DNA of 64,000 nt, taken from assembly GCA_001780895.1 (NCBI GenBank), contig MFJJ01000010.1:898-64897 (forward strand), given 5' to 3'. The notes below the pieces were generated by a model. It was not told the DNA's origin. It did not search any database and saw only the letters and a program-made list of their open reading frames with translations. Every line of letters begins with the position of its first letter. Within the stretch, counting starts at the first letter, position 1. A program made the position numbers and the translations under genes. Source of the stretch: Candidatus Gottesmanbacteria bacterium RIFCSPHIGHO2_01_FULL_46_14. GTDB taxonomy: Bacteria > Patescibacteriota > Microgenomatia > UBA10105 > UBA927. Shown one piece after another: positions 3,505 through 30,083 of the stretch.

Positions 3505-4245
3505 ATGGAACTTAAAGATAAAGTTGTTCTCATTACAGGTTCTTCAAGTGGCATAGGCAAAGCCGCCGCCCTCAAATTTGCGCAAGAAAAAGCAAAAGTA
3601 GTTGTTCATTACAAAACTAATAAGACTGGGGCCCAACTTACAGTAGACGAAATGAAAAATTGGGGCGCTGAGGTTATCGCAGTTCAGGCCGATGTAGTGA
3701 AGCCTCACGAGGTCAAAAGACTATTTTCCGAGGTACTTAAAGCGTTTGGAACCTTAGACGTTCTCATTAATAATGCAGGATTAGCCAAGCCAAAGCCCTT
3801 TTTGGAAATCACCAGAGATGACCTGGCGGAGGAGTTTGATAAGAATTTCTTTAGCATGGTTTACTCCTGTCAGGAAGCTGCAAGAATCATGCAAAAAAAA
3901 GATTCCGGAAAAATTATCAATGTCTCTTCGATTTGTGGATTAACAGGCTGTACAAGCATACTCACTTTTACATCTGCGCGGTCAGCAGTAACGGGTTTTA
4001 CAAAGGCACTCGCCAAAATTCTAGCACCAAACATAATGGTTAATGCAGTAGCGCCAGGATTTACCCTTACCCGCTTTTGGGATAAAATGACAGACAAAGA
4101 GGTTAAAGAATTGCTTGACTCAACACTGTCTAAAAAGTGGGTTACCGCAGAAGAAATCGCAGATACATTTATTTATTTGACTAAAAACGATTCTGTGACT
4201 GGTCAAGTAATCGTTGTAGATGGAGGCTACACTACAAATATATGA
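3505..4245 (+). CDS. SDR family oxidoreductase (FabG-like)
   Basis: ITGSSSGIGKAAA Rossmann motif, NNAG motif, and the catalytic S...Y...K spacing. Confidence 0.75.
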   Translation: MELKDKVVLITGSSSGIGKAAALKFAQEKAKVVVHYKTNKTGAQLTVDEMKNWGAEVIAVQADVVKPHEVKRLFSEVLKAFGTLDVLINNAGLAKPKPFLEITRDDLAEEFDKNFFSMVYSCQEAARIMQKKDSGKIINVSSICGLTGCTSILTFTSARSAVTGFTKALAKILAPNIMVNAVAPGFTLTRFWDKMTDKEVKELLDSTLSKKWVTAEEIADTFIYLTKNDSVTGQVIVVDGGYTTNI

Positions 4246-4712
4246 ATACAAAAAACAAAAACATCATTAAGGATATTCTTCAAGCAACCCCCTTGCTGTC
4301 TATGGCTTCTATTACAAAAGACGGGAAGAGTTGGATTTGCACTGCCTTTTATGCATATGATGATAAACTGAAATTGTATTTTCTAACTCCGCCGACGACA
4401 CAACACAGTAAAAATTTAGAGAAAAATGCTTCAGTAGCTATTTCAGTTTTTGATACTCATCAAAACCCTGATGACAAGAAGCGGGGGCTACAGATATTTG
4501 GTGCATGTCATAAAGCAGCAGGTAATGAAATAGAGAAGGGGCTACGCATATATGGCAAACGATTTGTGGATTTCGGAAAGAAAATCCTTTCGCCAGAAGA
4601 TATTGAGAAATCAAAAATGCATTCGCGCTTCTATGTTGTAGTCCCGCAAAAGATAAAAATATTTGATGAATTAGTTTTCGGTGAAGAGATATGGGTAACC
4701 GTGGTTATTTGA
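4242..4712 (+). CDS. pyridoxamine 5'-phosphate oxidase-like FMN-binding split-barrel protein
   Basis: 156 aa. ATGA overlap with the upstream SDR gene. Pattern resembles general stress protein 26 / PNPOx. Confidence 0.4.
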   Translation: MNTKNKNIIKDILQATPLLSMASITKDGKSWICTAFYAYDDKLKLYFLTPPTTQHSKNLEKNASVAISVFDTHQNPDDKKRGLQIFGACHKAAGNEIEKGLRIYGKRFVDFGKKILSPEDIEKSKMHSRFYVVVPQKIKIFDELVFGEEIWVTVVI

Positions 4713-5360: not shown

Positions 5361-6266
5361 ATGATGAGGAGATCTATGCGCAGAAAGATAGTATTTCTGG
5401 TCGTTATTCTTCTTCTGATCGGTGGTGTTATAGGACTAATCCGATTTTTTTCAGGCCGAAGCGGAGCGACCGGTGAGCTTCGTGTGGATAGTCAGCCTAC
5501 AGTGAGTATATTTTTGGATAATAGACATATTGGTCGAAGCCCCTATAAAGACAAAGTTGCCTCCGGTGAATATACCATCAAGCTTACTCCGGAATCTGCG
5601 GTCGATTCTCCGGCAAGTTGGCAGGGACAAATCACTATTGGACCCAATTTATTAACGTATGTAAATGCAACACTTTCCGACTCCGAGCTTACCAGTGCAG
5701 TCGATGTTCTTTGGCTCACTAAAACGTCAGGCAGAGCCTCCGAAGTTTCCGTTACCACCAACCCCGATGGCGCAACACTTCTTATTGATAACGAAACGAA
5801 AGGAGTAACACCCCTTGCTATCTCCGATCTTTCCGCCGGAGACCATACGCTCACGGTTACGTCTCCGGGATTTGCTCCCCGAACGCTCAAAATAAAAGCA
5901 ACGGCCGGGTATCGCCTCATCGTGACGGTCAAACTTGCCCTTTCTGGCGAGCCGATGCCAACGCCGACTGAGGAAGCGACACCTTCGCCAACACTTAAAA
6001 CAACACCTAAAGCGACCCCAACCAAGATAGCAACAAGTTCAGCCACCATGCCTGATCCGACTAAACCCTTCGTGACGATCAAAGACACACCCACCGGATT
6101 TTTGCGCGTCCGGATGGAGCCATCGACGGCCGCTACTGAAGCTGCACAAGTCAAGCCTGGTGAAAAATATCACATCGAGGATGAGCAGAGCGGGTGGTAT
6201 CAGATAAAATACAGCGGAACCAATGAGGGTTGGATCTCCGGCCAGTACGCCACAAAGACTGAGTAA
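5361..6266 (+). CDS. PEGA domain protein with C-terminal SH3b-like domain, membrane anchored
   Basis: N-terminal TM helix. PEGA-like block (TNPDGATLLIDNETKGVTPL...GDHTLTV). Pro/Thr-rich linker. C-terminal GWYQIKY...GWISGQY. Confidence 0.5.
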   Translation: MMRRSMRRKIVFLVVILLLIGGVIGLIRFFSGRSGATGELRVDSQPTVSIFLDNRHIGRSPYKDKVASGEYTIKLTPESAVDSPASWQGQITIGPNLLTYVNATLSDSELTSAVDVLWLTKTSGRASEVSVTTNPDGATLLIDNETKGVTPLAISDLSAGDHTLTVTSPGFAPRTLKIKATAGYRLIVTVKLALSGEPMPTPTEEATPSPTLKTTPKATPTKIATSSATMPDPTKPFVTIKDTPTGFLRVRMEPSTAATEAAQVKPGEKYHIEDEQSGWYQIKYSGTNEGWISGQYATKTE

Positions 6267-6271
6267 TATAT

Positions 6272-6679
6272 ATGGGTTATGAAAATGTGTTGCGCGTGGA
6301 GGGTTTTCTGAAGGATCGTATTGGCTGGTGTAGCGGAAGTGGTTATTCGAGTTTCGGGAGGATGGTTATAGCGTATCGCGACGAAGTACCTCGTGATGAC
6401 GTTTTAACAGGGGAGGAGCTTGAAAAAGCTTGCGCATCTTGTCCAGTGGGGAAAGAGAGAATACCTGGTTTGATTTGCGGTGGGATGAAATATGTCAATC
6501 GGATGCAAAGTCAAATGGTGGCTGAGGTGGATGTTTCAGATAAAGCTCAGTTACCGGAAGGCGCTGAAATATTTTGTGGCTTGGATAACGCGAGGTTACA
6601 ATCGATGAAGGAAGCACCGACCATAGCAGAAGTAGCAGCTCAATATACCGGCGATATGCCTCTCGTGCCGTATAATTGA
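6272..6679 (+). CDS. hypothetical protein
   Basis: 135 aa ORF with no recognisable family. Confidence 0.3.
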   Translation: MGYENVLRVEGFLKDRIGWCSGSGYSSFGRMVIAYRDEVPRDDVLTGEELEKACASCPVGKERIPGLICGGMKYVNRMQSQMVAEVDVSDKAQLPEGAEIFCGLDNARLQSMKEAPTIAEVAAQYTGDMPLVPYN

Positions 6680-6693
6680 TGGAGCGCAAATTG

Positions 6694-6750
6694 CTACCCT
6701 CCTATCCCATACACGACCACCAGCACGCTTCCCACCCAAAGTTCCTTCAG
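6694..6750 (-). pseudogene. duplicated 3'-end fragment of the UbiA-family prenyltransferase gene (encodes ...LWVGSVLVVVYGIGG*)
   Basis: 19 codons ending in TAG. The last 15 aa are identical to the C-terminus of the intact gene at 7384..8322, with about 10 synonymous nt differences. Confidence 0.6.
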
Positions 6751-7112
6751 TTCATCCGACGAAATACGATTTCAAACTCTTTACGAAATCCTTCAAACGT
6801 TATGGTGGCTTTTTGGAAAAGATCCGCTTGTCCGAGGATACAATGGTAGGGCGATATTCCTTCCACGATATTCAATGCGAGGGAAAACGTACTCCCATTT
6901 ATTTCTGCCTCCGCGCGATCAAACCGGTGAGAACGAAATTGTCCGCTTAACGTAAAGCCGATAGATGCCGGAATACTCTCCCATGGTATGCTGAGCGATT
7001 CTGCGATAGTCGTTGAAATCACTGCTCCTGCTGCGCCAGAGTCAACCAATGCAAATGTCGGAAATTCTGTTTGTTGGTGGCGAAATGTCACGGGAACTAT
7101 CGGTGCCAGCAC
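6747..7112 (-). CDS. retropepsin-like aspartic protease (clan AA)
   Basis: LVDSGAAGAVIS active-site motif, hydrophobic-hydrophobic-D-S/T-G-A. Length 121 aa. Confidence 0.55.
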   Translation of the reverse strand: MLAPIVPVTFRHQQTEFPTFALVDSGAAGAVISTTIAESLSIPWESIPASIGFTLSGQFRSHRFDRAEAEINGSTFSLALNIVEGISPYHCILGQADLFQKATITFEGFRKEFEIVFRRMN

Positions 7113-7383
7113 GACTCTGTTCTTGATGCTCGGAAGCGGACTGTACCTGTATTGTATGAAGCCTATCCGATGAAGTTGCCGTACGTTTTTCCTGCCGGAA
7201 AAAAGTATACCTTTTCTTTTTGTTTCTGTACCTTCTCTTTGAGTGTTTTTAGGTTTCTTCCGGCAAACACGACGGAGCGAAAGTCAGACGAAATTGCTAC
7301 CCATCCGGACGTATGGCCCCGCAGTAGTTTGACAAAATTGATCGACTTCTTTTTCATACAACAGTAGTATACTACTTTATGCT

Positions 7384-8322
7384 TCATCCTCCAATGCCGT
7401 AGACCACCACCAGCACACTCCCCACCCAGAGGATGATTGTGGCTAGAAGGGGAAGATCGCTGGTTAAAATTTTCTCCGGTGATTCACCTTTCCCTTCGTA
7501 AATAAGCTGCATATACCGCATGATGCCATAGAGAACAAATGGGATTGTCAACATCATCCATTTTCGCCCGGGAATATCCGGTGCAAAATCTCCGTAGTTG
7601 CGAAAAATAATACCTTCTCCTTGAGGTTGGGCTAAAAACGTAAAAAATGCGTAGGTAATAAACGTCGAGTTTGCAAACATTGCCGTATAGGTATCAAGGA
7701 GTTTTTCTGAGTAATGGGAAAGCGCCATACGCGTATCGCGGGGAACAACGCCTTCGTAGCTATCGATAAGGGTAAGCTCTGCTCTGCGTTTTCCGATAGC
7801 AAGAAACAAGGCAAGCGACAAAGCCGCCAGAGCGAGCCAAATGGAAATGTGAAATCCCGTGGCGGCTTCACCGGCATAGACCCGGAGGATATATGCGGTC
7901 GTAATGGTAAGAATATCAATAATACTGTACTGTTTTAAGATAAGCGTATAGGCATACTCAAGAAACAAAAATGCGACTGCAAAAAGAAAAAACGTCGGAT
8001 TGGTGAGACTTGCAATATAGAGCCCTGTGAAGGCAAAAAGAATCGAAACGAGGACTGCCACAGGGATAGGGAGTTTGCCGCTTGCGACCGGACGAAATTT
8101 TTTGAAGGGATGTTTTCGGTCTCGGGGAGCATCGAGGACGTCGTTAAAGAGATAGTTTGATGAGGAGAGTAAACAAAATGCAATAAACGCCCAGAGATTT
8201 TGTATAAATGGGGCGGTTTGAAACAGTTGCCCAGTAAAGAGAATCGGCGTGAAGATCGCGATATTTTTTAACCACTGTCGGGGTCGTGCGGTTTTGAAAA
8301 TTGCCAAAAGTACTTGAGCCAT
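7384..8322 (-). CDS. UbiA family prenyltransferase, decaprenyl-phosphate phosphoribosyltransferase-like
   Basis: NDVLDAPRDRKHP...RPVASGKL motif (NDxxDxxxD) and multiple TM helices. The start was trimmed to MAQVLL (8322) because the ORF-track N-terminal extension overlaps the upstream gene. Confidence 0.55.
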   Translation of the reverse strand: MAQVLLAIFKTARPRQWLKNIAIFTPILFTGQLFQTAPFIQNLWAFIAFCLLSSSNYLFNDVLDAPRDRKHPFKKFRPVASGKLPIPVAVLVSILFAFTGLYIASLTNPTFFLFAVAFLFLEYAYTLILKQYSIIDILTITTAYILRVYAGEAATGFHISIWLALAALSLALFLAIGKRRAELTLIDSYEGVVPRDTRMALSHYSEKLLDTYTAMFANSTFITYAFFTFLAQPQGEGIIFRNYGDFAPDIPGRKWMMLTIPFVLYGIMRYMQLIYEGKGESPEKILTSDLPLLATIILWVGSVLVVVYGIGG

Positions 8323-9395
8323 AGCAGGAAGCCGCCAATGACCACACCGACAAGAAGTAAGGTAAACACCTTCTGTCGACTCGTGACAGCCAAGGCGATT
8401 GCACCAAGTATAGCCGACACACCCCAGTAAAACAAGGCAACACGGCGTCGGCCCCATCCCAGATCCAAGAGTCGGTGGTGGAGGTGACCACGGTCGGCCC
8501 AAACTGGAGACTTTCCGTGGCCTATTCGTCGTATGAGCGTATAGAGGGCGTCAATTGTTGGAATGCCGAGAACCAGGAGTGCGGTGCCCAGTTTCCCGTA
8601 GGAAAGAATACCCAACAGTCCGAGCATCAGCCCGGCGATCGTTTTGCCGCCGTGTCCCGGCATGATTTTTTGCGGATAGACGTTCCATGGTAAAAAACCC
8701 AGGAACGCTCCGGCGACGATAAAGGCTAAAATCGTGACCGGAAGTTGAGACGGGTCGACGGCACTATAGCGCAGGGACAAGAGTCCCAAAACAATGCCAG
8801 AGACCACGACAAATCCCGGCATCTGTCCGTCGACTCCGGCTGACCAGCCGACGATGTGCATCGTCCACATAAGCCAGACGAATGCAAATAGGTCTGCCCA
8901 GACCAAAATGGAATGTTTTCCAAAAAAATCAAACGAGAGGCGCCAGGTTTGAAGATCGATTACTCCTCCGGTTATTGGATTGGTAACAAACGGAATACCG
9001 GCGCCCACTCCTATCACAACAATAACGGCAAGTATCCCAATACCAAGGCGAATATAGGGGTTTATATCACGTTTGTCGTCTATTATTCCCGTGATCGTCA
9101 GGAGTGCAAGTGCTACGATTATTCCGACCGTGAGTTTTGTAACGGGTAGATAAAGAAGCATTGCGATGGCGATTGCCGCAAATAAGGCAAGCCCTCCCGC
9201 GCGGGGGACTGTTCCGTGATGGGTATGGGCGGGATGATAGCGATTTTTTGGGTTATCGAGGAGTTTCCAGTTGCGGGCAAGATCAATAACCCATGGCGTT
9301 ACCCCAAAACTAATGAGACCTGCAACAATTCCGGCAAGAGCGAAATTCATGAGAGCGTTACGTAACCAGAGAGAGAATTTGTACGATTGAAACAA
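8268..9395 (-). CDS. glycosyltransferase family 4 polyprenyl-phosphate phosphosugar transferase (MraY/WecA family)
   Basis: 375 aa with about 10 TM helices and Asp-rich cytoplasmic loops (GIIDDKRD). Architecture is typical of MraY/WecA. Confidence 0.6.
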   Translation of the reverse strand: MFQSYKFSLWLRNALMNFALAGIVAGLISFGVTPWVIDLARNWKLLDNPKNRYHPAHTHHGTVPRAGGLALFAAIAIAMLLYLPVTKLTVGIIVALALLTITGIIDDKRDINPYIRLGIGILAVIVVIGVGAGIPFVTNPITGGVIDLQTWRLSFDFFGKHSILVWADLFAFVWLMWTMHIVGWSAGVDGQMPGFVVVSGIVLGLLSLRYSAVDPSQLPVTILAFIVAGAFLGFLPWNVYPQKIMPGHGGKTIAGLMLGLLGILSYGKLGTALLVLGIPTIDALYTLIRRIGHGKSPVWADRGHLHHRLLDLGWGRRRVALFYWGVSAILGAIALAVTSRQKVFTLLLVGVVIGGFLLWLKYFWQFSKPHDPDSG

Positions 9396-9732
9396 ACGAT
9401 AGTATACTCACAAAAAATGATGCAATGATGACAAGTTTTGAAAACACCGTTTGCCCACCGATATTACTTGCCAAAGTAAGACTCAGTCCTTGCCAAAAGA
9501 GACTCGCCCCCGGGAGAAGAAAGAGCCAGAGGGGGTTTGCCAGTTGGTCTTGTCCCCACGCCCGAGAATACCACAGCGGTATGAATGGCGGGAGCATTCG
9601 CCACCACCAGGCGATGATGGCGATAGAGAGCAGGGTGAAACTGATCGATGCGATCGAGAGCCAACGAATCAAGGGTAATACCAACAGTTGACTCCATTGT
9701 GCCCGAATGCGCTCTATAGGTGCGAGATTCAT
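9358..9732 (-). CDS. hypothetical membrane protein
   Basis: 124 aa with 3-4 TM helices, lying inside the glycosyltransferase cluster. Confidence 0.3.
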   Translation of the reverse strand: MNLAPIERIRAQWSQLLVLPLIRWLSIASISFTLLSIAIIAWWWRMLPPFIPLWYSRAWGQDQLANPLWLFLLPGASLFWQGLSLTLASNIGGQTVFSKLVIIASFFVSILSFVSIVQILSLVT

Positions 9733-11036
9733 AGGGGAGGAGTCGTGCTGTAAGCAACGCTATAGGATCCATCAATGTTAACTAAGAATGCTTGCATTGG
9801 ATAGGGCGGAAGATCATAGGCCTGTTTTTTTGGATCAAATATCGCATCCCCAACATACCAGGGAAACGCTGATCCGTTGGGATTATAGAGATACACGCGT
9901 GAAGGATCGGCACTATAGTATATGCTTTCAAACAAGATGAGTGGAGATTGAGCAAGTATCACATCGCGGGTTCCCGCAAGAGCGTTTATTTCTGTGAATG
10001 TACGGGCAATATCAACTTTTGGGTGTTTATTGGGGTACCACAGGTTGAATGCCAGAGAAAAAAGAATGAATGATACCCCCAACACTTTTTGCAATCGGCG
10101 GTTCCTCATGGCGTCAAGCGCATACACTAAAAGAAATACCTCGGCGATAGTAACGGGAATGAGGTATCGATTCACAAACAGCGGCTTGATAAACGATACA
10201 GAGATAACGAGAATTATCGGAGCAAATACGGCAAGGAAGAAATAGAGGGCTATCTGTTTGTGTTCTTTATTTCTGAGAGCCGTCACGAATAAAAGAATAA
10301 GCCCGACGGACAGAGCTGCGGTATAGTCCCATAAATACCACGGCGTCCCTTCATATCCCAAAAATATATTCCCAACGACCGAGGCAATCAGGTGAAAGTC
10401 GACAGGGAAATACCACGAATTTTTGAGTTTGGCCGATACTTGCGCAATGCGGATAAGCCAGGGAAGAATAAACAGTCCATTAATAAGAGAGGCGCGAACG
10501 AAAGGATCGCGCAGTCGCCTCGGTGACAGTTTTTTTGTGAGGAGCCAATGGATAACTTGGACGAATGGAACAATGAGAAAGTAGCTGTGTGTGTAAAATC
10601 CCAGGATCGTTGCCAGAATATAAAGCCGCCATCGACGTTCAATATACGTGTACATGGATAGTGTCGCAAAAAAGATATACCATCCATATGTTCGGACCTC
10701 AAACGCATAATAGATAAGCATGGGATTTAAAAAGAACAGGAGAGGGAGTACGATGGAAAGCCAGGACTTTTTAAATAACGTTTCTGACCAGTGTATGACG
10801 ACTCCAGTTGCAAGGGCAAATCCTAATAGAGATAAACTGCGAACGGCAATTTCACTTGTGCCAAAAAGTTTTATCCAATAATGGAGCATGGTGTAATAAA
10901 CGGGCGGTTCAAAGGTGACCGATTGAGCAATCCATGAGACTGGACGTTGCGCAACCAGTACCGAGAACGCCTCATCGCGCCAAAGGCTTTGGGTGAGGTA
11001 GAGGAGCGGGGTATGCGTCAAGAGCCAATTGAACAT
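9729..11036 (-). CDS. GT-C fold glycosyltransferase (ArnT/PMT-like, family 39/83-like)
   Basis: 435 aa, polytopic, with an N-proximal RDEA motif in the first loop, typical of lipid-linked sugar donor transferases. Confidence 0.5.
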   Translation of the reverse strand: MFNWLLTHTPLLYLTQSLWRDEAFSVLVAQRPVSWIAQSVTFEPPVYYTMLHYWIKLFGTSEIAVRSLSLLGFALATGVVIHWSETLFKKSWLSIVLPLLFFLNPMLIYYAFEVRTYGWYIFFATLSMYTYIERRWRLYILATILGFYTHSYFLIVPFVQVIHWLLTKKLSPRRLRDPFVRASLINGLFILPWLIRIAQVSAKLKNSWYFPVDFHLIASVVGNIFLGYEGTPWYLWDYTAALSVGLILLFVTALRNKEHKQIALYFFLAVFAPIILVISVSFIKPLFVNRYLIPVTIAEVFLLVYALDAMRNRRLQKVLGVSFILFSLAFNLWYPNKHPKVDIARTFTEINALAGTRDVILAQSPLILFESIYYSADPSRVYLYNPNGSAFPWYVGDAIFDPKKQAYDLPPYPMQAFLVNIDGSYSVAYSTTPPL

Positions 11037-11050
11037 ATCGTTACCTGCTA

Positions 11051-12532
11051 TTATACCTTTTCAGTCACTCGATACTCCAGGCGTTTGCCGAGCATGAGTC
11101 TTGTGTGAGCATCAAGTCCGGGAAGAGCGGAAAGGAAAAACGAGACGACGGGTAACGTAATCCATTGAAGGTATAAAAACGGTATTTTCCATCGTGCATA
11201 TTCTTTCGGACGAGGGGGTTTTATACGTAAATCGATGACAATAACAACAATAAGAAATATTGCCGATAGCGTAAGGATACCTGATGATATTTGCGAGAGA
11301 TTATGCCCGAGTACGGTGCGGGCAAACGCAGGGTTAATAAGGGGAGGAAGGGTGCTTCCAATTGTAAGAATAAACCAATTTGCCGGCCAGAACACGTGAT
11401 GTTCAAGGAGCATAATAAGGCGGCGTAGTCTGTCAGATAGCGGAATGGTGTGACTGAGGAAGACGCCACGGATGACAAAGGGAAGATCCGATACGCCCCA
11501 TGCCCAGCGTTTGGACTGTTCATATTGATTGACCATCGTCCGGAAAAATGAATGACTCTCCGCAGCATCAGCAAGAACCGGAAGAAATATGCCGCGGGTG
11601 GTAACTTTTTCTCCGAGGGCAAAATACACTTTAAAGAAGAGGTGATAATCTTCTGGGATTACGTCTATGCCCCAAAACCCTGCTTTTTGGGCTGTTGAAA
11701 GGGCTAGGGAATACGTGGAAAAATTGATGAATCGACTGCTTTGCGAGAGAAGCGAAAGATTCCAAATGCTGTTCATGGTATTAAATACCCGGCTGGGGAG
11801 GGGGATTCGCCAAATGTTGGAATAAAATAAAATCGCTCCCTGATAGAAATGATACGCCCGGTCTGGATCGGTGAGGAATTGACAGGAAAGAGCCGAGAAA
11901 TATTTTGGGTGGAGGAGTGCATCTGCGTCACACGAGGTGACGGTCGTGGTATTGATATCAATATGCCAACCCGGGAGAGCAGCGACAACTTTTTTTGCCG
12001 CCCATGCCATGTTTGATGATTTCCCCGCGACTTCGCCGGTATGAAGAACGTGTCGCGTGACCATGAATTTGCCAAAAAGACTCCCAAATTTCTTCCGTAG
12101 AGTTTTTTCTGTTTCTCGCGCGTGGGGATCTTTATCTTCGGTTGCGAGAACTACAATGATGCGCTCTTTAGGAAAGTCCTGTTGGGCTAGGTTTGTAAGT
12201 GTGCGTTCAAGGACGTGGATGGGTTCCTGATACTCGGGAACAATCACAACATGGTAGAGCTTATTAAAATCTGGGAGATTCTTTGTGAGTGCGACCCAGT
12301 CTACTTTCGTATGCGCAGAGATCATCAGAAACGATCGGATCGCATGAATAGCCAGGCGAAATGATTTATAAAACCAATAGACATCAAAAGTAATGATGAG
12401 ATAGGCAACGATAGCCGGATGCCAAAATGACAGCCAAAACGGCATCGTTATAAGTATCCACGAAGTGAAGGGAATGAGAATTTCAAAAAATCGTCTTGTC
12501 CGGTTTGGATACCGGAGAAATAATGATCTCAT
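11051..12532 (-). CDS. membrane-bound family 2 glycosyltransferase (processive synthase-like)
   Basis: N- and C-terminal TM segments flank a GT-A domain with DxD (CDADALL) and upstream IVPEYQE motifs. Confidence 0.5.
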   Translation of the reverse strand: MRSLFLRYPNRTRRFFEILIPFTSWILITMPFWLSFWHPAIVAYLIITFDVYWFYKSFRLAIHAIRSFLMISAHTKVDWVALTKNLPDFNKLYHVVIVPEYQEPIHVLERTLTNLAQQDFPKERIIVVLATEDKDPHARETEKTLRKKFGSLFGKFMVTRHVLHTGEVAGKSSNMAWAAKKVVAALPGWHIDINTTTVTSCDADALLHPKYFSALSCQFLTDPDRAYHFYQGAILFYSNIWRIPLPSRVFNTMNSIWNLSLLSQSSRFINFSTYSLALSTAQKAGFWGIDVIPEDYHLFFKVYFALGEKVTTRGIFLPVLADAAESHSFFRTMVNQYEQSKRWAWGVSDLPFVIRGVFLSHTIPLSDRLRRLIMLLEHHVFWPANWFILTIGSTLPPLINPAFARTVLGHNLSQISSGILTLSAIFLIVVIVIDLRIKPPRPKEYARWKIPFLYLQWITLPVVSFFLSALPGLDAHTRLMLGKRLEYRVTEKV

Positions 12533-12544
12533 ACAAGGTTATCT

Positions 12545-13264
12545 CTATACTGTTTTGAATAGCGCGTATTTGGTTAGTCTCCCGAGCAGATAATACGTTC
12601 GACTGACGATGTCTTTGAAAAGCGAACGCTCGTCTGCGCGAAGTTGAGTAAGAACGGTAAGCGCAGGGTCAAACAGGACTTTAAGGTGTTTTTGATGAAG
12701 CCGAATGGCGAGCGTGAGGTCATCCATTTGCGTGACGTCGTGAATTTTTCCGTCAAATCCCCCAGCTTTGGCGAGAGCATCCCGACGTATAGCAAGATTC
12801 CCACCGATAATCAGCTGAACTCCAAAGACAGCATGAAGAAGGGCAAACATATATATATAATCTTTTCCTTGAGGAAAAATCCACGTATAGAATTTTCCGA
12901 CGTCTGTAAAACTATATGGACCACCGACAGCCGCAATAGAGGGATGTTCCCGAAAGGTGACTTGGATTTTTTTGAGGTAATCAGAAGGAACGACGCAATC
13001 TGCATCTACAAAAACGAGGAGCTCACTTTTTGCCCGCCGTACTCCGGTGTTTCGGGCGTTGCTTGCTCCCGGTTTCTGCTCGAGAAAGACAAGTTGTATA
13101 TATTTTTTTGCAACGTCGCTCGTTGCATCCTTGGAGTTATTGTCGACGACAATAATTTCATACGGCTCGCGGAGACTTTGTTTTTTAAGGGAAGCGAGGC
13201 AAGCTCCAATATGGTGTGCTTCGTTGTATGCGGGAATAATGATCGACAAAACCGGTTTTTGCAT
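12545..13264 (-). CDS. family 2 glycosyltransferase (polyprenyl-phosphate sugar synthase-like)
   Basis: SIIIPAYNE...VVDNNSKD...VDADC motifs. Start trimmed to MQKPVLS. Confidence 0.6.
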   Translation of the reverse strand: MQKPVLSIIIPAYNEAHHIGACLASLKKQSLREPYEIIVVDNNSKDATSDVAKKYIQLVFLEQKPGASNARNTGVRRAKSELLVFVDADCVVPSDYLKKIQVTFREHPSIAAVGGPYSFTDVGKFYTWIFPQGKDYIYMFALLHAVFGVQLIIGGNLAIRRDALAKAGGFDGKIHDVTQMDDLTLAIRLHQKHLKVLFDPALTVLTQLRADERSLFKDIVSRTYYLLGRLTKYALFKTV

Positions 13265-13294
13265 TGTAGGAATTATACAAAACCTGTGGTATAA

Positions 13295-14671
13295 ATGCAT
13301 GTTATAGTGGATTGCCCACGAATTGTTATCATCGGTGCCGGACCATGCGGTTTAGGTGCAGCATGGAGACTGCAAGAATTTGGCTACAGAGATTTTGTCC
13401 TCTTAGAAAAAGAAAATCACGTTGGCGGTCTGGCGTCCTCGTATGTTGATGCCAACGGATTTACCTGGGACGTTGGTGGTCACGTCATTCACTCGCACTA
13501 CCCCTATTTTGACCGTGTTTTTCAAGAGGTCACCGCTGGAGAATATTTAACCCACGAGCGTGAATCCTGGATATGGATATACGATCGTTTCGTTCCCTAT
13601 CCGTTTCAGAATAATATCCGTTATCTGCCTCCTTCGGTGATACAGGAGTGCCTTGACGGCTTAAAGGAGGCTTCTGCAAAGAAACACGACCCGGAAACGT
13701 TTGCCGAATGGATAGTTGATTCTTTTGGAAGTGGCATCGCCAAACATTTTCTTTTTCCATACAACCGCAAAGTATGGGCATATCCGCTTGAAAAAATGAG
13801 CTACCAATGGGTGGGCGATAGAGTTGCTTCTGTCGACATAACAAGAATTGAACTCAACATTGCAGAAAAGAAAGACGACGTTTCATGGGGTCCCAATGCC
13901 GTATTTGAGTTTCCAACATTTGGGGGAACCGGTTCTATTTGGGAGGGTGTTGCAAATCGGTTCCGGTCGCACATCCGACTCAACGCCGGTGTTACTTCTA
14001 TTGATGCCCTCAAGCGGCAGGTAATCTGTACTGATGGTTCGGTTCATCCTTACGACGTGCTTTTGACGACGATGCCGATAGACCGATTGACTGGATTGAC
14101 GACGGGACTCACTGGCACGTCAGGATCTGAGGACCTTCATTTCTCTTCAGTTTTTATCGTGGGGATCGGGGTTAAAGGAGATACTCCAGCTCACCTTCGC
14201 GGGAAGTGTTGGATGTATTTTCCCGAAGATCACGCCCCGTTTTTTCGCGCGACGGTTTTTTCCCATTACTCACCACATAACGCCCCCAAAGGAACATGGT
14301 CTCTCATGACGGAAACGTCAGTTTCGCGCTATCAACCGCTAGCTAACCAAGACATTGTCGCTTCCGTTATCGACGGGGCAAAAAAAACGGGTTTAATCGG
14401 AGAGCAATCAACCGTTGTCGACACGTGGAAATTTACGACAAACTATGGCTATCCAACACCGACGCTTGGGCGTGATCAAATTCTTGATCGGTTATTCCCG
14501 ATATTTGAAAAGCACAATATTTTTTCCCGGGGAAGATTTGGAGCATGGCGGTATGAAGTTTCCAATCAGGATCACACATTTATGCAAGGAGTTGAGTGGG
14601 TCAATAAGATTCTCAATGGAGAAGAAGAGGTAACGGTCTTCCATCCGGAGTTGGTTAATGCAAAGAAGTGA
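13295..14671 (+). CDS. FAD-dependent oxidoreductase, amine-oxidase fold (UDP-galactopyranose mutase-like)
   Basis: IVIIGAGPCGLGAA...EKENHVGG Rossmann motif, then GGHVIH and a FPYNRKVW block resembling the UGM substrate motif. The specific function is uncertain. Confidence 0.4.
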   Translation: MHVIVDCPRIVIIGAGPCGLGAAWRLQEFGYRDFVLLEKENHVGGLASSYVDANGFTWDVGGHVIHSHYPYFDRVFQEVTAGEYLTHERESWIWIYDRFVPYPFQNNIRYLPPSVIQECLDGLKEASAKKHDPETFAEWIVDSFGSGIAKHFLFPYNRKVWAYPLEKMSYQWVGDRVASVDITRIELNIAEKKDDVSWGPNAVFEFPTFGGTGSIWEGVANRFRSHIRLNAGVTSIDALKRQVICTDGSVHPYDVLLTTMPIDRLTGLTTGLTGTSGSEDLHFSSVFIVGIGVKGDTPAHLRGKCWMYFPEDHAPFFRATVFSHYSPHNAPKGTWSLMTETSVSRYQPLANQDIVASVIDGAKKTGLIGEQSTVVDTWKFTTNYGYPTPTLGRDQILDRLFPIFEKHNIFSRGRFGAWRYEVSNQDHTFMQGVEWVNKILNGEEEVTVFHPELVNAKK

Positions 14672-15425
14672 AGAGCGTTTGTGCATTAGTTGTCGTTGTG
14701 TCTGCCAGAACTTTTGTTGTAATTCCTTTTAGTTGGGCGATCTGTTTAGCGATAAGCGGAATATATTTGGGTTCATTGCGTTCTCCTCGATGAGGCACCG
14801 GTGTTAGATAGGGTGCATCAGTTTCTAGCAGAAGCATGGAAAGCGGAATTGATGGAACGGTTAGTGACAATTGTTTGGAATAGGTTACATTGCCATCAAT
14901 ACCGACAAAAATTTTTCGCGCCTGGGCTTGGCGAAGTTCTTGAAGACCTCCGGAAAAACAGTGGATGGTGCCTTTTGGTAAAGATGGGAGTGCGTCGAGG
15001 ACAGTAAAAAAATCTTCGTATGCGTCCCGACAGTGCATGATAACCGGAAGATTATGGCGAAGTGCGAGACGAAGCTGTTCATCAAAGAGCCGTTTTTGTT
15101 TGTCTTTTTTTCCGAGCGCCTGCTCACCCTTGTACTGAAAATAATCCAAACCGCATTCTCCGATAGCTATGACTTGATCATTCATAAGGGAGTCGAGTTT
15201 TTGCACATCCGGGTCATGCTGTGCTTCGTGGGGGTGGATGCCCAGAGCAGGGAAGATAACGCCCGGATAAAGCTTAGCCAGCTCCAACACTTCTTGTGAA
15301 GAGTGTAAATCAACGCCGGGATTGATACATTGTTTCACTCCCGCCTTTTTGGCATTCCCTACGACCATCGCCCGATCAGAATCGTATTGAGAGAAATTAA
15401 GATGGCAATGTGTATCGATGTACAT
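14655..15425 (-). CDS. tatD: TatD family metal-dependent hydrolase
   Basis: Starts MYIDTHCHL, has conserved His/Asp/Glu positions, 256 aa. Confidence 0.75.
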   Translation of the reverse strand: MYIDTHCHLNFSQYDSDRAMVVGNAKKAGVKQCINPGVDLHSSQEVLELAKLYPGVIFPALGIHPHEAQHDPDVQKLDSLMNDQVIAIGECGLDYFQYKGEQALGKKDKQKRLFDEQLRLALRHNLPVIMHCRDAYEDFFTVLDALPSLPKGTIHCFSGGLQELRQAQARKIFVGIDGNVTYSKQLSLTVPSIPLSMLLLETDAPYLTPVPHRGERNEPKYIPLIAKQIAQLKGITTKVLADTTTTNAQTLFTSLH

Positions 15426-15428
15426 GCG

Positions 15429-16865
15429 TTACAGGCGGGGAAATAACGATGGTTGAGATAGTATCGTCGGCCCCCTAAATTGCTCAAGAATTTTTTGGGC
15501 GGTTTGTGGCAGAAACGGTTGGAGGAGGGTGGCGATTTCGATAATTTGGCTGATTGCTCGGTCAAGTACTTTGATTAAATCATTGCCAGATAACTTCCAC
15601 GGTTGGTTCTCGTTGATAAACTTATCTACTGTTTTTACTCTCTCCCAGACATACGCAAGCGCATCATTGAATCTGTACTCTTCAAGCGCTTTTTTGTATT
15701 CTCCGGTATTGACGTCTTGAAAATTTACATTTTTCATTTTACACTTTTGACTTTCTGCCAGTTTCGCGATTCTAGCCACTAAATTTCCAAGTCCGTTGGC
15801 AAGATCTGCATTGTAAAGTTCTTTAAATCTTCTCTCTGAATAATCGCCGTCACTATAACTAGGTATTTCGCGGGTGAGATAGTACCGGACTGCGTCAGTT
15901 CCATATTGATTAAGAACTTTTATGGGATCCACAACATTGCCAACCGTTTTACTCATTTTTTGCCCATCAACAGTCAAGTAGCCATGAACGAAGAGTTGCT
16001 TGGGTAATGGCAGACCCGCGGATTTGAGAACTGCCGGCCAGTAGATTGCATGAAACCGCAAGATTCCTTTGCCGATAATCATAAGGTCAGCTGGTGCCCA
16101 TTTGGTAAATAGTTCGTCATTCCAGCCTAAGCCAATCCCACTGTAATAAATGTTGTTCGCATCAAACCATACATACATAATTTGATCGGGATCTCCAGGG
16201 ACAGGTACGCCCCATCCTTTGGCGCGTTCTTTAGTTCGGGAAATAGAAAAATCTTCTAAGCCTTTTTTTATAAAAGCTACCGTTTCATTTTTTTTGCTCT
16301 GAGGGATAATAGAGAGAGCATCAGAGATGATTAACTCCTCGAAAAATTTTTGGTATTTTGACAAACGGAAAAAATAATTTTTTTCTGCGATAAGATCAAG
16401 CTTCTTGCCGGGATGTTCAAAACATTCACCGTTTTCATTGAGTTCATCGGATGTATAAAAAGCTTCACAACCAACGCAGTAGAGCCCCTCGTATGATTTT
16501 TTATAAATATCCCCACTTTTTGTACAGAGTTCCCAGAGTTTTTGAGAGGATAAAAAGTGATTTTCGTTTGTCCCACGTTGCCATATATCAAAATGAACAT
16601 TGAGCTTTTTGGCCAGATCAAGAAATTCTTGTTGGTGAATGTCGCAGAATTTATGTGGTTCTACTCCAGCCTTTTGGGCGGCCTGAATAATTTTTAGTCC
16701 ATTTTCATCGGCTCCACACAGATACAGTACATCCTCATGGAGAAGCTTGTGATATCGTCGAATAACGTCTGAGTAGATAAATTCCTGTGCATGGCCGATG
16801 TGAGGCGCAGCGTTGACGTAAGGAATTGCGCTATGGAGGTAGAATTTATTTGTCATAATCGTCAT
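15429..16865 (-). CDS. metG: methionine--tRNA ligase (short form)
   Basis: HIGH (APHIGHAQEF) and KMSKT motifs. 478 aa. Confidence 0.85.
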   Translation of the reverse strand: MTIMTNKFYLHSAIPYVNAAPHIGHAQEFIYSDVIRRYHKLLHEDVLYLCGADENGLKIIQAAQKAGVEPHKFCDIHQQEFLDLAKKLNVHFDIWQRGTNENHFLSSQKLWELCTKSGDIYKKSYEGLYCVGCEAFYTSDELNENGECFEHPGKKLDLIAEKNYFFRLSKYQKFFEELIISDALSIIPQSKKNETVAFIKKGLEDFSISRTKERAKGWGVPVPGDPDQIMYVWFDANNIYYSGIGLGWNDELFTKWAPADLMIIGKGILRFHAIYWPAVLKSAGLPLPKQLFVHGYLTVDGQKMSKTVGNVVDPIKVLNQYGTDAVRYYLTREIPSYSDGDYSERRFKELYNADLANGLGNLVARIAKLAESQKCKMKNVNFQDVNTGEYKKALEEYRFNDALAYVWERVKTVDKFINENQPWKLSGNDLIKVLDRAISQIIEIATLLQPFLPQTAQKILEQFRGPTILSQPSLFPRL

Positions 16866-20113: not shown

Positions 20114-21006
20114 CAGCTGAAGAATTTTACTCTCAGTATCTCGTTCTCAAACATTCTCTTCCCCAGTCTGCTACGCATAGTCATAGCAACGAAAACTCAG
20201 AGTATGTAAGTTACAGTTACCGATGCAAGAATTGTTACTATTGCTTTGATTGTGTCGATTGTAGAAACTGTTTGTATTGTTTCGATTGCGTACGCAGTAA
20301 CGATTGTCTAGATGGTGATTATTGCGTTGAGTGCGAGCAACTCTACGAGTCTGTTGATGCATATCGCTGCTACAACAGTGCGTTTCTCAACTACTGTGCA
20401 CGGGTTTATGACAGCTATTTTTGTCGCAATTGTTTTGACAGTCACAATCTTTTCGGATGTGCCGATCTCAAGCAAAAACAATATTGCATTTTTAACAAGC
20501 AATATACAAAAGAAGAATACGAAAAACAGGTTATAGAGTTATTGAAAATCGTACCCAAAGAGCATCTGAAAAAATTGAATGAACTCGCGAGTCAACATCC
20601 TATTGGTCCGACGTACGTCTCGAACTCCGAAAACAGTGACTATGGCAATCAAGTGCACTACTGCACGAGCTGTTATCTTTGTTTCGACACTGCTCGAAGT
20701 AATGACTTAGCATATTCATACGATACGGCATACTGTACAAATTCAATGGATTTGACATACTGCTACAAAGCAGAACTCTGTTACGAGTGTACCGATAGTT
20801 CAAAGATTTATAACTGTGATTTTATCGAGTGGTCGAGCGAGTGCTTTGATAGCGCGTATTTAACCAATTGCAAAGATTGCCATAATTGTTTTGGCTGTGT
20901 AGAAGTTGCGCATAAACGGTTTTGTATTCTCAATAAGCAATATTCGCAAGAAGACTATAAAAAGGTAGTTAGCGAAATTGTGGTTTCTAGACAAGCGGTT
21001 CACTAA
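20110..21006 (+). CDS. Cys-rich tandem-duplicated protein (Cys every third residue: CxxCxxCFDCxxC...), unknown family
   Basis: About 33 Cys in about 298 aa. Two homologous modules of roughly 110 aa, each ending C(I)FNKQY(T/S)xE(E/D)YxK. Start trimmed to ATG 20110 (ORF track begins at 20071). Confidence 0.5.
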   Translation: MTAEEFYSQYLVLKHSLPQSATHSHSNENSEYVSYSYRCKNCYYCFDCVDCRNCLYCFDCVRSNDCLDGDYCVECEQLYESVDAYRCYNSAFLNYCARVYDSYFCRNCFDSHNLFGCADLKQKQYCIFNKQYTKEEYEKQVIELLKIVPKEHLKKLNELASQHPIGPTYVSNSENSDYGNQVHYCTSCYLCFDTARSNDLAYSYDTAYCTNSMDLTYCYKAELCYECTDSSKIYNCDFIEWSSECFDSAYLTNCKDCHNCFGCVEVAHKRFCILNKQYSQEDYKKVVSEIVVSRQAVH

Positions 21007-23173
21007 ATGCTTGTGCTTTTGCCTCAGCGACCGATGGTATGCCAGATTCTTCAAGCAGCCCAATCTCTTTTTCCACTTCAGATCTCGGACGTGCGAATCG
21101 CTCGCGGGACGTTCGCACGATATCGTTTGCAAGATCCTCGTCGGGTTTGGGGAAATTAAGCGTGCGGCCGGAAAACGGTGGAGCGGTTTGCCCATCGATC
21201 GTCATTTTTACGTAGAAATTTCGCATATCTAAATTGAGAAAATCTTTTGGCGAAAAGGTTGGCGTATATTCTTTTTCAAGAACTGCTGCGTCTTCGCCGC
21301 CGACGCGAAATGAAACAATACTTCCGATATTACCAAATATGGTGGAGCGGACTTCTTCCGGCAGTTGCATCATATACTGGTGCGCAACTGTGAGATTCAA
21401 GCGATATTTTCTGGCTTCCGAAAGAATATTCGAGAAAGCGCTTGTGGCGAAATTTTGAAACTCGTCGATATACAAGTAAGTATCTTTTCTGTCCTCTTCT
21501 GCTAAACTTGCCCGAGCAACCGCTGCTTGCCAAAGCTTGGTAATAAACATTGCACCCAGTAGCGCGCTATTTTCCTCGCCCAACTTTCCGATTGCAAAAT
21601 TGGCAATAAGAATTTTTTCGCCGTTTATGATTTCGTCGAGTTTAACAGAACTTTTTGTTTGACCAACAATATTTCTGATAATCGGGTTGGCGACAAATTG
21701 ACCGACTTTATTGATAATCGGCGTAATTGCTTCGCCGGCAAATTGCTCGTTCCACGACGAAAACTCCGTCGTCCAGAATTTTTTTACCAAGGGATCCTGA
21801 ATTTTGGCGATAATTTCCTGTCGATAGCGGATATCAGAAAGCATATTGGTAATGCCCAATACCGTTGCACCGGGAACATCAAGAAGTGCGAGCGTTGTGT
21901 AGCGAAGCACGTGTTCTAATCGTTGATTCCAGGTGAATGAAAATAACTTCTTAAATATTGCGATAAATCCAGCAACGACAGTTTGCTTAAACTCATACGT
22001 CCCTACTCCTTCGAGCGGATTGAAACTCATGGGGTAGTCAATATCAGAAGGATTAAAATACACAACGTCGTAGAGTCTCTCTCTGGGAATATAGCGAAGC
22101 ATTTCTTCGGAAAGATCGCCGTGCGGGTCCATGATGACGCAGCCTTTTCCCTGTCGAATATCAGCAAGAGCGAGAAGTTGGATGAGTTTACTTTTTCCGA
22201 CCCCAGTTTTTCCGATGATGTAGAGATGTTTTCTTCGATCTTCTCGCTTAATACCAAACTCCGTCGAAACTCCCCGAAAATTGGTGGTGGCAAAAGGAAT
22301 AATTGCGGGTTTGGTGGGCAAATTTATCGGCGGCTCGGCGGTTTTCGATTTGGCTACTGATACTTGCGCGATACCGGAGGAGGCTAGGGGCAAGTGATAC
22401 ATCGTTGCCAGTTCATCTCCTCCCAAAAGAAATGGTTTTGGCGAGGCGGTACGCTGCCGGAACGCATCGACTGCGCGGGGATTACTGCCACGCTTCCAGA
22501 TTTTGAGTGAGTTGAGATTTGGGTTATCGAGGATTTTAAAGAGTGCAGAAACTGATGAGGCGAGCAGTTCCGATTTTGTATCCGCGCTTGCCGCAATGCG
22601 AATTGTTGTCGAAAACAGCGATTTGTGCAATTTTTCTGTCTCCTTTTCCTGAAGTAGTTCCCGCATGGAAGAATTTTTCCTCATGCTTTGTCTCCATGAA
22701 GTGCGAAGCATTTCGCGAAATTTGAATGAAAGTGACTCATTGTTTACCGGGCTTACGATGACTTGAATGCCAATGAGGTCATTGCCGGAAATACTTGATG
22801 CCATTCCGGATAAAGCGGACAGAAAATCAGTTTCGAGTTCCTTATACGTTTTGATGGGATAGGCATCCGGCCGTTCTAATTTTAGGATTATCACGTGTGA
22901 CGAAAGAGAGAGCGAGCCGGTGTAGTCGGTAACCTCAACGATTTCGAGCGTTGGATACTGGGAAAATAACTGTCCGCGGACGATATCGACGTTGCTTCGT
23001 TCGGTGACGACAAAAAAATACAAGAATCCGCCGCGCACCACAATCTCAAATGAGAGTGTGGCGGGGTGATGGCGAAAAAGTTCGGAAAGCCCTGTAAATA
23101 TGGCCTCCGCTGCCACCGGCCCCCGGTCATTTTCCCTGGGGACTTTAAGATGCAGGACAACAGGCGCGTTCAT
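20987..23173 (-). CDS. TraD/VirD4/HerA-FtsK superfamily P-loop ATPase with about 300-aa N-terminal domain
   Basis: Walker A IIGKTGVGKSKL, then the CVIMDPHGDL motif typical of coupling-protein/DUF87-like ATPases, then a Walker B-like LYIDEFQNF. 728 aa. Confidence 0.5.
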   Translation of the reverse strand: MNAPVVLHLKVPRENDRGPVAAEAIFTGLSELFRHHPATLSFEIVVRGGFLYFFVVTERSNVDIVRGQLFSQYPTLEIVEVTDYTGSLSLSSHVIILKLERPDAYPIKTYKELETDFLSALSGMASSISGNDLIGIQVIVSPVNNESLSFKFREMLRTSWRQSMRKNSSMRELLQEKETEKLHKSLFSTTIRIAASADTKSELLASSVSALFKILDNPNLNSLKIWKRGSNPRAVDAFRQRTASPKPFLLGGDELATMYHLPLASSGIAQVSVAKSKTAEPPINLPTKPAIIPFATTNFRGVSTEFGIKREDRRKHLYIIGKTGVGKSKLIQLLALADIRQGKGCVIMDPHGDLSEEMLRYIPRERLYDVVYFNPSDIDYPMSFNPLEGVGTYEFKQTVVAGFIAIFKKLFSFTWNQRLEHVLRYTTLALLDVPGATVLGITNMLSDIRYRQEIIAKIQDPLVKKFWTTEFSSWNEQFAGEAITPIINKVGQFVANPIIRNIVGQTKSSVKLDEIINGEKILIANFAIGKLGEENSALLGAMFITKLWQAAVARASLAEEDRKDTYLYIDEFQNFATSAFSNILSEARKYRLNLTVAHQYMMQLPEEVRSTIFGNIGSIVSFRVGGEDAAVLEKEYTPTFSPKDFLNLDMRNFYVKMTIDGQTAPPFSGRTLNFPKPDEDLANDIVRTSRERFARPRSEVEKEIGLLEESGIPSVAEAKAQAFSEPLV

Positions 23174-25027: not shown

Positions 25028-25056
25028 TTTTCTGTTGGGAGTATAATGACCGAACC

Positions 25057-27946: not shown

Positions 27947-28210
27947 ATGTATAATATACCCATGAGTGATAATAATCGGCCATATTTTTTGTGGGATTAT
28001 GATTTGACCGAAGAGGATATTCGGAGGATTTTGCGTGGGGAAAACCGTACGGATAGAATTTGGATTCTATCGCGGATTCTGGAAAGCGCACGGTTTGAAG
28101 ATGTATGGCGATATACGACGCTTTCCGAAGTACGAGAAATGTTTCCCGTATTAAAACTCAAGCAACCCATCCGACAGGCTTGGGAACACGCGTTACACGT
28201 ATGGCAATAA
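27947..28210 (+). CDS. hypothetical small protein, possible partner of the AbiEii-family gene
   Basis: 88 aa. Its stop overlaps the start of the next gene by 10 nt. Confidence 0.3.
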   Translation: MYNIPMSDNNRPYFLWDYDLTEEDIRRILRGENRTDRIWILSRILESARFEDVWRYTTLSEVREMFPVLKLKQPIRQAWEHALHVWQ

Positions 28211-30045: not shown

Positions 30046-30083
30046 CAAGAAAACGAAGACTGTTTGCCTTACTTGACCACTGT

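Follow-up and report, generated by a model that had tools for sequence, protein, structure and literature searches.

A conserved operon of Candidatus Gottesmanbacteria that may couple synthesis of a cell-envelope glycan to its modification with a pentofuranose

Do bacteria of the candidate phyla radiation (CPR, Patescibacteria) build a surface glycan that carries pentofuranose residues, and by which route would they do so? This question is raised by a gene cluster on contig MFJJ01000010.1 of Candidatus Gottesmanbacteria bacterium RIFCSPHIGHO2_01_FULL_46_14, of which a stretch of 64,000 nucleotides (the window) was analysed. An earlier note on this DNA had suggested an arabinogalactan-like pathway with lipid-linked furanosyl donors. 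CPR bacteria do not grow in pure culture, and hardly anything is known of their envelopes. We read the cluster as a cell-envelope glycan operon in which genes for building a glycan stand together with a module for pentofuranose side chains, a reading to which we give an even chance. Among known systems it is probably best compared with the three-component pentofuranose system, of which it would be a version from the CPR that is linked to a glycan made by a synthase, with ribofuranose (Ribf) as the probable sugar and galactofuranose (Galf) as an accessory of one lineage.

For comparison with relatives, one genome per species was scanned with an alignment of the GT-C fold glycosyltransferase of the cluster. 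This yielded 70 loci, nearly all from Gottesmanbacteria or Microgenomates, and 69 loci were then searched by tblastn with the window proteins. The conserved order is methionyl-tRNA synthetase (MetRS), TatD, a variable slot, an integral-membrane family 2 glycosyltransferase (GT2) of 493 amino acids (GT2_493), the GT-C, a small transmembrane (TM) protein, a PNPT (MraY/WecA-family) protein, a UbiA-family enzyme and a convergent PEGA/SH3 protein. Matches to the GT-C were present in 69/69 loci, to GT2_493 in 66/69, to the PNPT in 65/69, to the UbiA enzyme in 64/69 and to the small protein in 61/69. The FAD enzyme that is encoded divergently in the window, a UDP-galactopyranose mutase (UGM) as described below, was matched in 0/69. 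Since five of the six minus-strand genes occur in the same order across 61-69 of the 69 related loci, we regard them as real. They are tightly packed, with gaps of 7-14 nt or overlaps of 4 nt or 55 nt. The six minus-strand genes and the divergent FAD gene named by the earlier note were all recovered by the ORF (open reading frame) listing and the profile searches, including both GT2 enzymes, one a 493-aa membrane protein and one a soluble protein of 239 aa. Many of the species-representative metagenome-assembled genomes that bear the operon are titled 'uncultured Gammaproteobacteria bacterium', probably an error of record labelling.

The pentofuranose part of the reading starts from the UbiA-family enzyme (7384-8322, minus strand), for which the mechanical ORF reaches 8502 and the conserved start gives 312 aa. 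It scored 205.6, 200.1 and 141.5 bits on three NCBIfam models for decaprenyl-phosphate phosphoribosyltransferase (decaprenyl-phosphoryl-phosphoribose or DPPR synthase), the highest value, on NF008978, lying 1.4 bits under the cutoff of 207. Scores on other UbiA clades did not exceed 52 bits (heme O synthase 42, 4-hydroxybenzoate prenyltransferases 22-31, MqnP 24), so that the profile comparison puts the protein on the DPPR synthase side and in neither the heme O nor the menaquinone/4-hydroxybenzoate clade. The best match to a solved structure was Rv3806c of Mycobacterium tuberculosis (8j8j, E=2e-33). The motifs NDVLDAPRD (NDxxDxxxD) and FRPVASG (RPxAxG) are present, and the initial description of the protein as DPPR-synthase-like was thus borne out. 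In Rv3806c, the residues in contact with phosphoribosyl pyrophosphate (PRPP) are listed in PMC10994848; K28, Y70 and Y157 bind the 5'-phosphate, while R22, K87, R90, K143 and Y138 bind the pyrophosphate. Ten of 12 contact residues are identical in the window protein (R22, K28, Y70, N73, D77, K87, R90, Y138, K143, Y157), Q135 is replaced by E and K208 has no aligned counterpart. Because all three 5'-phosphate residues, which set this clade apart from the prenyltransferases, are retained, PRPP is the likely donor. By its sequence the enzyme appears to belong to the Rv3806c clade of the UbiA superfamily, that of the polyprenyl-phosphate 5-phosphoribosyltransferases (PPPRS). Its orthologues in the 64 loci are 62-78% identical. 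With the HAD-UbiA model NF006088 it aligned in the UbiA half only.

The GT-C (9729-11036, minus strand; 435 aa) gave no Pfam match and no match in a sequence search of the PDB. Its AlphaFold2 model (pLDDT 86) displays a GT-C fold, and structural comparison scored ArnT at 21.4 and ALG12 at 21.1, followed by Pmt4 (18.4), ALG9 (16.9), AglB and STT3 (about 15), AftA (14.7), AftB (12.7), AftD (12.5) and EmbA (8.5). Judged from the model, the protein is closest to ArnT, ALG12 and PMT, users of polyprenyl-monophosphate sugars, and falls outside the mycobacterial arabinosyltransferase families, namely AftA (GT85), AftB (GT89), AftC (GT87), AftD and Emb (GT53). An ArnT/PMT-like transferase with lipid-linked donors had been predicted by the earlier note and fits this fold comparison; its assignment to the actinobacterial arabinogalactan type does not, as ArnT, ALG12 and PMT are nearer than AftA, AftB, AftD or Emb. 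GT-C enzymes bear a catalytic acid just after the first helix, and directly after the first helix of this protein W19-R20-D21-E22 are invariant. We presume that the GT-C is an extracytoplasmic pentofuranosyltransferase.

An enzyme of this type could also glycosylate proteins, in the manner of PMT or of the pilin arabinofuranosyl (Araf) transferase TfpW. It would then decorate pilins, S-layer proteins or the neighbouring PEGA/SH3 protein with pentofuranose taken from the UbiA product, while the PNPT and the GT2 enzymes make a separate polymer. We consider this rather unlikely. The GT-C gene lies between the synthase-type GT2 gene and the PNPT gene in a tight operon, which favours a single product. 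None of the adjacent genes encodes a pilin, and the PMTs are outscored by ArnT and ALG12, whose acceptors are lipids and glycans.

The small membrane protein (9358-9732, minus strand) has about 124 aa with three hydrophobic segments, and the first 4 nt of its gene lie within the end of the GT-C gene. No match was found in Pfam, NCBIfam or the PDB. Since no Pfam family or solved structure was matched, it is not a GtrA, SMR or MATE protein. The 65 orthologues that were extracted have 110-149 aa, with TM1 and TM2 connected by a conserved loop, LPPxVPLWYSRPWGxDQLAHPLW. As the positive-inside rule puts this loop outward, an accessory subunit of the GT-C is tentatively preferred over a flippase for the donor, a sequence-based proposal which we hold with low confidence.

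The glycan-building part rests on two proteins. GT2_493 (11051-12532, minus strand) matches PF13632 with 33 bits, and the sequence search of the PDB gave only a marginal match (E=0.31). Its AlphaFold2 model has an overall pLDDT of 70.5, with values above 85 in the GT-A core, and the top Foldseek matches were the hyaluronan synthases (HAS) of a Chlorella virus and Xenopus, PcManGT, BcsA and chitin synthase. D135, D202-x-D204, E294-D295 and Q339-x-x-R342-W343 are invariant among 30 sequences; D, DxD, ED and QxxRW are the motifs by which processive membrane synthases are recognised. GT2_493 thus shares these motifs with class I HAS, BcsA and chitin synthase, and in its predicted fold also the N-terminal TM helices, the GT-A core and the C-terminal TM bundle, but sequence similarity to them is only 12-16% and no regulatory domain, PilZ or otherwise, is present. 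Within the cluster GT2_493 shows the highest conservation, with orthologues that are 65-85% identical and nearly all exactly 493 aa long. Based on the model we presume that it is a processive glycan synthase.

The PNPT (8268-9350, minus strand; 360 aa) matches PF00953 (Glycos_transf_4) with 69.8 bits, above the Pfam cutoff. The earlier note had called it a GT4 polyprenyl-phosphate phosphosugar transferase; the gene is there, and the label stands for PF00953 of the MraY/WecA superfamily, not for CAZy family GT4. The best NCBIfam match was WecA (TIGR02380) with 84.9 bits, far under its cutoff of 326, and MraY reached 46. Its invariant features are a DD pair, D189 and HLHH. Where MraY has the Asp of its 'MGD' motif, 64 of 65 sequences carry Tyr and the window protein carries His. 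The protein thus represents an atypical subfamily, with a chemistry that may differ from that of WecA; it is presumed to be the initiating polyprenyl-phosphate sugar-1-phosphate transferase. The end of the PNPT gene runs exactly 55 nt into the UbiA gene, both in the window lineage and in three further genomes with gene calls (4/4), which suggests translational coupling.

This coupling also bears on a further scheme, in which the PNPT and the GT2 enzymes would build a polyprenyl-diphosphate-oligosaccharide that the GT-C transfers en bloc, as oligosaccharyltransferases of the PglB/AglB/STT3 type do, with the UbiA enzyme being unrelated. If so, the coupling of UbiA to the PNPT and their joint conservation would not be expected, and no Wzx-type flippase is found in the operon. 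The GT-C has only 435 aa, compared with 706-793 residues in the matched oligosaccharyltransferase chains, and is matched clearly better by enzymes that use polyprenyl-monophosphate sugars. Oligosaccharyltransferases carry a large C-terminal domain with a WWDYG motif. We regard this scheme as very unlikely.

The divergent FAD enzyme (13295-14671, plus strand; 458 aa) had been described as a divergent protein with UGM-like motifs. The UGM identity was confirmed, and the protein turned out to be not a divergent relative but a strong, full-length match to eukaryotic UGMs, with 47% identity to the enzyme of Trypanosoma cruzi (4dsg, E=8e-136) and E=1.6e-118 to that of Aspergillus fumigatus (3ute). 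It scored 456 bits as UGM, only 24 bits on the bacterial UGM model TIGR00031 and 24-37 bits on models for protoporphyrinogen oxidase and phytoene desaturase. Profile scores and PDB matches therefore both place it on the UGM side of the comparison with protoporphyrinogen oxidases and phytoene desaturases, and its sequence clearly identifies a UGM of the eukaryotic type. The segments GGHVI, DRVA, FRATVFS, GYPTP and RGRFGAWRYEVxNQDH are conserved, and the flavin-loop and substrate-binding segments of the eukaryotic enzymes (T. cruzi, A. fumigatus, Leishmania GLF) are kept. Its identity to the T. cruzi enzyme is close to the 50% between T. cruzi and A. fumigatus, but it has a bacterial host and is without the insertions of the fungal enzyme.

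With both enzymes assigned, it can be asked whether the cluster is a coincidental assembly of an aromatic prenyltransferase (for quinone, heme O or ether lipid) and a protoporphyrinogen/phytoene-type oxidase. The names given to FAD-enzyme homologues by their sources, 'protoporphyrinogen oxidase', speak for it. The UbiA enzyme favours DPPR synthase by more than 150 bits, the FAD enzyme favours UGM over protoporphyrinogen oxidase by 456 to 24 bits, and the operon is kept in about 65 species. We count this explanation as refuted, with next to no probability left to it.

Is the UGM a fixed part of the operon? None of the 69 related operons contains it, and in other CPR genomes a UGM gene directly follows MreB-PBP2, next to a GT1 or GT2 gene. 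In GCA_964349125.1 the core operon is located on contig 1 (locus L074) and a 61%-identical UGM on contig 4 (locus L015), adjoining MreB and PBP2. We therefore consider the UGM accessory and movable instead of a fixed partner of UbiA and the GT-C; as the conserved pathway component suggested earlier it was not sustained, and in this locus it is a lineage-specific insertion. In a rough neighbour-joining tree without support values, used for relative distances only, the window UGM groups with a large, CPR-rich metagenomic set outside the eukaryote clade. The eukaryote-type family is broad, with 7971 matches at E<=1e-20 in a database clustered at 90% identity and 1052 clusters at 50% identity (E<=1e-30). 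Where homologues are named at all they are usually called 'protoporphyrinogen oxidase', and the cluster-member names of the representatives are nearly all empty. One representative of 1551 aa (P0361) contains two UGM-like stretches and scores 796 bits, as a tandem or fused UGM. A literature search for UGM in the CPR or Patescibacteria found no report. No relevant paper was found on the phylogeny of eukaryotic UGMs, a paper on fungal nucleotide sugars being silent on the origin of UGM.

The soluble GT2 (12545-13264, minus strand, ORF to 13300) matches PF00535 with 117.9 bits; it gave no specific equivalog in NCBIfam, and GlfT2 was not among its PDB matches. It is about 30% identical to a GT2 of roughly 231 aa that fills the same slot in 24/69 loci, and is a candidate galactofuranosyltransferase. 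Among the 62 loci with both flanks, the slot between TatD and GT2_493 is empty in 34, holds the GT2 of about 231 aa in approximately 23 and a GT1-type enzyme in 3, and a few loci have extra alpha/beta-hydrolase-like genes. The variable slot at the operon head resembles hot spots of glycan diversification, the GT2 and UGM genes of the window being one more occupant. A divergent GT2/UGM pair was also seen in a relative with a 70%-identical UGM. A conserved 'Galf module' of GT2 and UGM was considered and found unsupported: the UGM-adjacent GT2 of another Gottesmanbacteria genome is 33% identical, like unrelated slot GT2s.

Which pentofuranose would the operon handle? A true arabinogalactan-like pathway would need polyprenyl-phosphate-ribose to be epimerised by DprE1/E2-type enzymes encoded elsewhere, after which the GT-C would arabinosylate a Galf glycan. 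The parts parallel those of mycobacteria (WecA, GlfT1/GlfT2, Glf, Rv3806c, Rv3807c, DprE1/E2, AftA-D/Emb, Lcp1), with WecA-family protein, GT2s, UGM activity, PPPRS (DPPR-type UbiA), GT-C and, within the window, an LCP protein all corresponding at the family level. Furthermore, a FabG-like short-chain dehydrogenase/reductase (SDR) is encoded 3 kb away at 3505-4245, and the relatives were searched in their local neighbourhoods only. On the other side, tblastn with a validated M. tuberculosis query detected no DprE1 in the 64-kb window and 86 related loci (1.58 Mb). Pfam searches found no FAD_binding_4, PAP2 or HAD domain among the window ORFs of at least 150 aa, and none of the three in four Pfam-annotated relative neighbourhoods. 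FabG is the best-scoring assignment of the SDR, and in only 9/69 loci is an SDR encoded near the operon; for these reasons the SDR and PNPOx pair at 3505-4712 was rejected as a substitute epimerase. The absence of UGM from 69/69 loci places Galf outside the conserved pathway, and the GT-C is nearer to ArnT, ALG12 and PMT than to Aft or Emb. In the known Araf systems outside the actinobacteria, DprE1/E2 are kept in the same locus (PMC11127046). An arabinogalactan-like pathway is thus improbable. With DprE1 not found in the window or the 86 related loci, a GT-C not of the Aft/Emb type and a UGM that is not conserved, the arabinofuranose or arabinogalactan pathway of the earlier note was not upheld.

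Further differences from mycobacteria concern the layout. We found no DprE2-specific SDR, and the operon contains no Rv3807c-type phosphatase, rhamnosyltransferase or ABC exporter. It encodes one small ArnT-like GT-C, whereas mycobacteria have several Aft/Emb enzymes; its main GT2 is an integral-membrane, HAS/CesA-like protein, whereas GlfT2 is peripheral; and in place of the conserved UGM and GlfT of the mycobacterial pathway it has an accessory UGM of the eukaryotic type.

A closer likeness is offered by the three-component systems for pentofuranoses described by Kelly et al. (PNAS 2024; PMC11127046), with Citrobacter youngae O1/O2 as prototype (PPPRS ORF15, MATE flippase ORF14, GT-C ORF12/GT136). 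There, PPPRS and a phosphatase, either a fused HAD domain or a separate enzyme, yield polyprenyl-phosphate-Ribf, flipping is the task of a MATE or SMR protein, and the ArnT-like GT136 transfers the sugar extracellularly; DprE1/E2 or the ORF13 epimerase, encoded in the same locus, turn Ribf into Araf or xylofuranose (PMC11127046). The additional examples in that paper are from Proteobacteria, Bacillus and a phage, with no CPR organism among them. In the Gottesmanbacteria operon an NDxxDxxxD UbiA-type PPPRS and an ArnT-like GT-C are likewise encoded two genes apart (64/69 loci), the donor would likewise be a lipid monophosphate used outside the membrane, and both the GT-C and ORF12 are nearest to ArnT. 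The operon differs in that a HAD phosphoribose-phosphatase domain and a separate PAP2 gene are both missing, and in that an orphan 3-TM protein stands in place of a MATE or SMR flippase. Its GT-C is shorter (435 aa) and without the C-terminal domain that was identified in the Kelly et al. enzyme as a carbohydrate-binding module. Moreover, the pentofuranose module is joined in one operon to a PNPT and a synthase-type GT2, forms a lineage core instead of a serotype-variable add-on, and has a CPR host. As PPPRS and GT-C systems for pentofuranoses were described as widespread in 2024 (PMC11127046), the earlier view that a lipid-linked furanosyl pathway would be unusual here was overstated, although that paper reports none from CPR; our literature search for decaprenyl phosphoribosyltransferase or DPPR synthase in Patescibacteria/CPR found no report.

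By the rules of the PMC11127046 framework, the lack of an epimerase predicts Ribf for the operon. Since neither an epimerase nor a 5'-phosphatase is linked to it, the predicted sugar is ribofuranose, possibly still 5-phosphorylated, and not arabinofuranose.

For the operon as a route to a glycan with pentofuranose side chains, the following course can be proposed from the family and fold assignments, the conserved motifs and the synteny; its substrates, the sequence of its reactions, the nature of the acceptor and what the small protein does are all predictions. The PNPT would load a sugar-phosphate onto polyprenyl phosphate, as primer or anchor, and GT2_493 would polymerise and probably export a beta-linked backbone. 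The UbiA enzyme would condense PRPP and polyprenyl phosphate to polyprenyl-phosphate-ribofuranose-5-phosphate, from which, after flipping, the ArnT-like GT-C would move the pentofuranose, outside the membrane, onto the glycan or else onto a protein. The partner of the GT-C, or alternatively the flippase, might be the co-translated 3-TM protein. In the sub-lineage of the window, the slot GT2 and the eukaryote-type UGM may add galactofuranose from UDP-Galf on the cytoplasmic side.

Several points weigh against this course. Synthase-type GT2 enzymes normally need no PNPT primer, and the PNPT and GT2_493 steps may serve different products. The PNPT is without the Asp regarded as catalytic in MraY and WecA, a residue whose importance for catalysis is known from mutagenesis of both, and this makes its activity uncertain. 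The C-terminal TM region of GT2_493, which would form the channel, is poorly modelled and of low confidence. A 5'-phosphatase, present in the characterised systems, was missing from both the window and the annotated neighbourhoods, and no recognised flippase (MATE, SMR, GtrA) occurs at the operon, where the orphan 3-TM protein is the only candidate. The relatives were covered over approximately 20 kb around the operon, and an epimerase or phosphatase may be encoded elsewhere in their genomes of roughly 1 Mb.

A bolder version would see here a minimal arabinogalactan-like envelope route for which no equivalent has been described. In it, an atypical PNPT and a HAS-like synthase would make the backbone, and a PPPRS without a partner phosphatase would deliver polyprenyl-phosphate-ribose-5-phosphate directly to an ArnT-like GT-C that works with a new 3-TM subunit. 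The product would be a phosphoribosylated (teichoic-acid-like, anionic) wall glycan of Gottesmanbacteria and perhaps other Microgenomates, and the 'eukaryotic' UGM family would be by origin a bacterial one, rich in CPR members. We consider this combination unlikely.

With respect to its role, the operon, conserved in its order, is a strong candidate for the source of a core surface polymer, which could mediate attachment to a host or recognition by phages. If the proposed coupling holds, it would extend the three-component pentofuranose pathway to a new phylum and with an altered architecture that has no phosphatase, no known flippase, and a synthase and PNPT fused into the system. Thousands of metagenomic 'protoporphyrinogen oxidases' are eukaryote-type UGMs, a finding with consequences for annotation quality and for the question of where the galactofuranose synthesis of eukaryotic pathogens came from.

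The PEGA and SH3_3 protein, a surface or cell-wall-binding protein (5361-6266, plus strand), is the convergent neighbour of UbiA in 64/69 loci; the glycan might be attached to it or bound by it, or its position may reflect nothing more than synteny. A LytR-CpsA-Psr (LCP) glycopolymer-to-peptidoglycan ligase is encoded at 36566-37576 on the plus strand (PF03816 116.8 bits, TIGR00350 96 bits) and is a possible downstream partner of the operon, to which it is not adjacent. Together with this LCP gene, MurJ and two FemAB-family genes are found in the window (36566-37576, plus strand; 43129-44754, plus strand; 32158-33846, minus strand). LCP, MurJ and FemAB are consistent with a Gram-positive-like wall with attached polymers.

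At the 3' side of UbiA, two small ORFs (6747-7112 and 7163-7387, minus strand) encode 121 aa, weakly retropepsin-like, and 74 aa. Their Pfam matches were below cutoff or lacking. As they occur in none of the 69 related loci, these ORFs (6747-7387) were ruled out as members of the system, and a feature start at 6747, as set originally, lies too far out. Rfam and tRNA scans of the window gave no matches. A promoter and terminator scan of 6200-15600 returned what is expected from shuffled sequence (14 versus 13.1 and 10 versus 10.5) and was not used.

Elsewhere in the window, predicted surface proteins with Big_13/Big_6 Ig-like, cohesin, fn3 and GH39 domains (44751-48284 and 40170-41387, both on the minus strand) adjoin PilN/PilO (41574-42826). 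A VirD4/TraG-like coupling ATPase (20987-23173, minus strand; DUF8128 in relatives) and an AbiEii toxin (28105-28863, plus strand) are also encoded, as are ORFs of 300-460 aa without a family match (23789-25165, 28885-31076, 38144-39274). The remaining genes include those for MetRS, TatD, RmuC, UvrD-type helicases, TIM, HrcA, DnaK, DnaJ, NusA, IF-2, PNPase and RNase J. Contigs with an identical UGM and an operon that is 99-100% identical were found in several metagenome assemblies, and one relative of the locus stems from Hainich groundwater samples.

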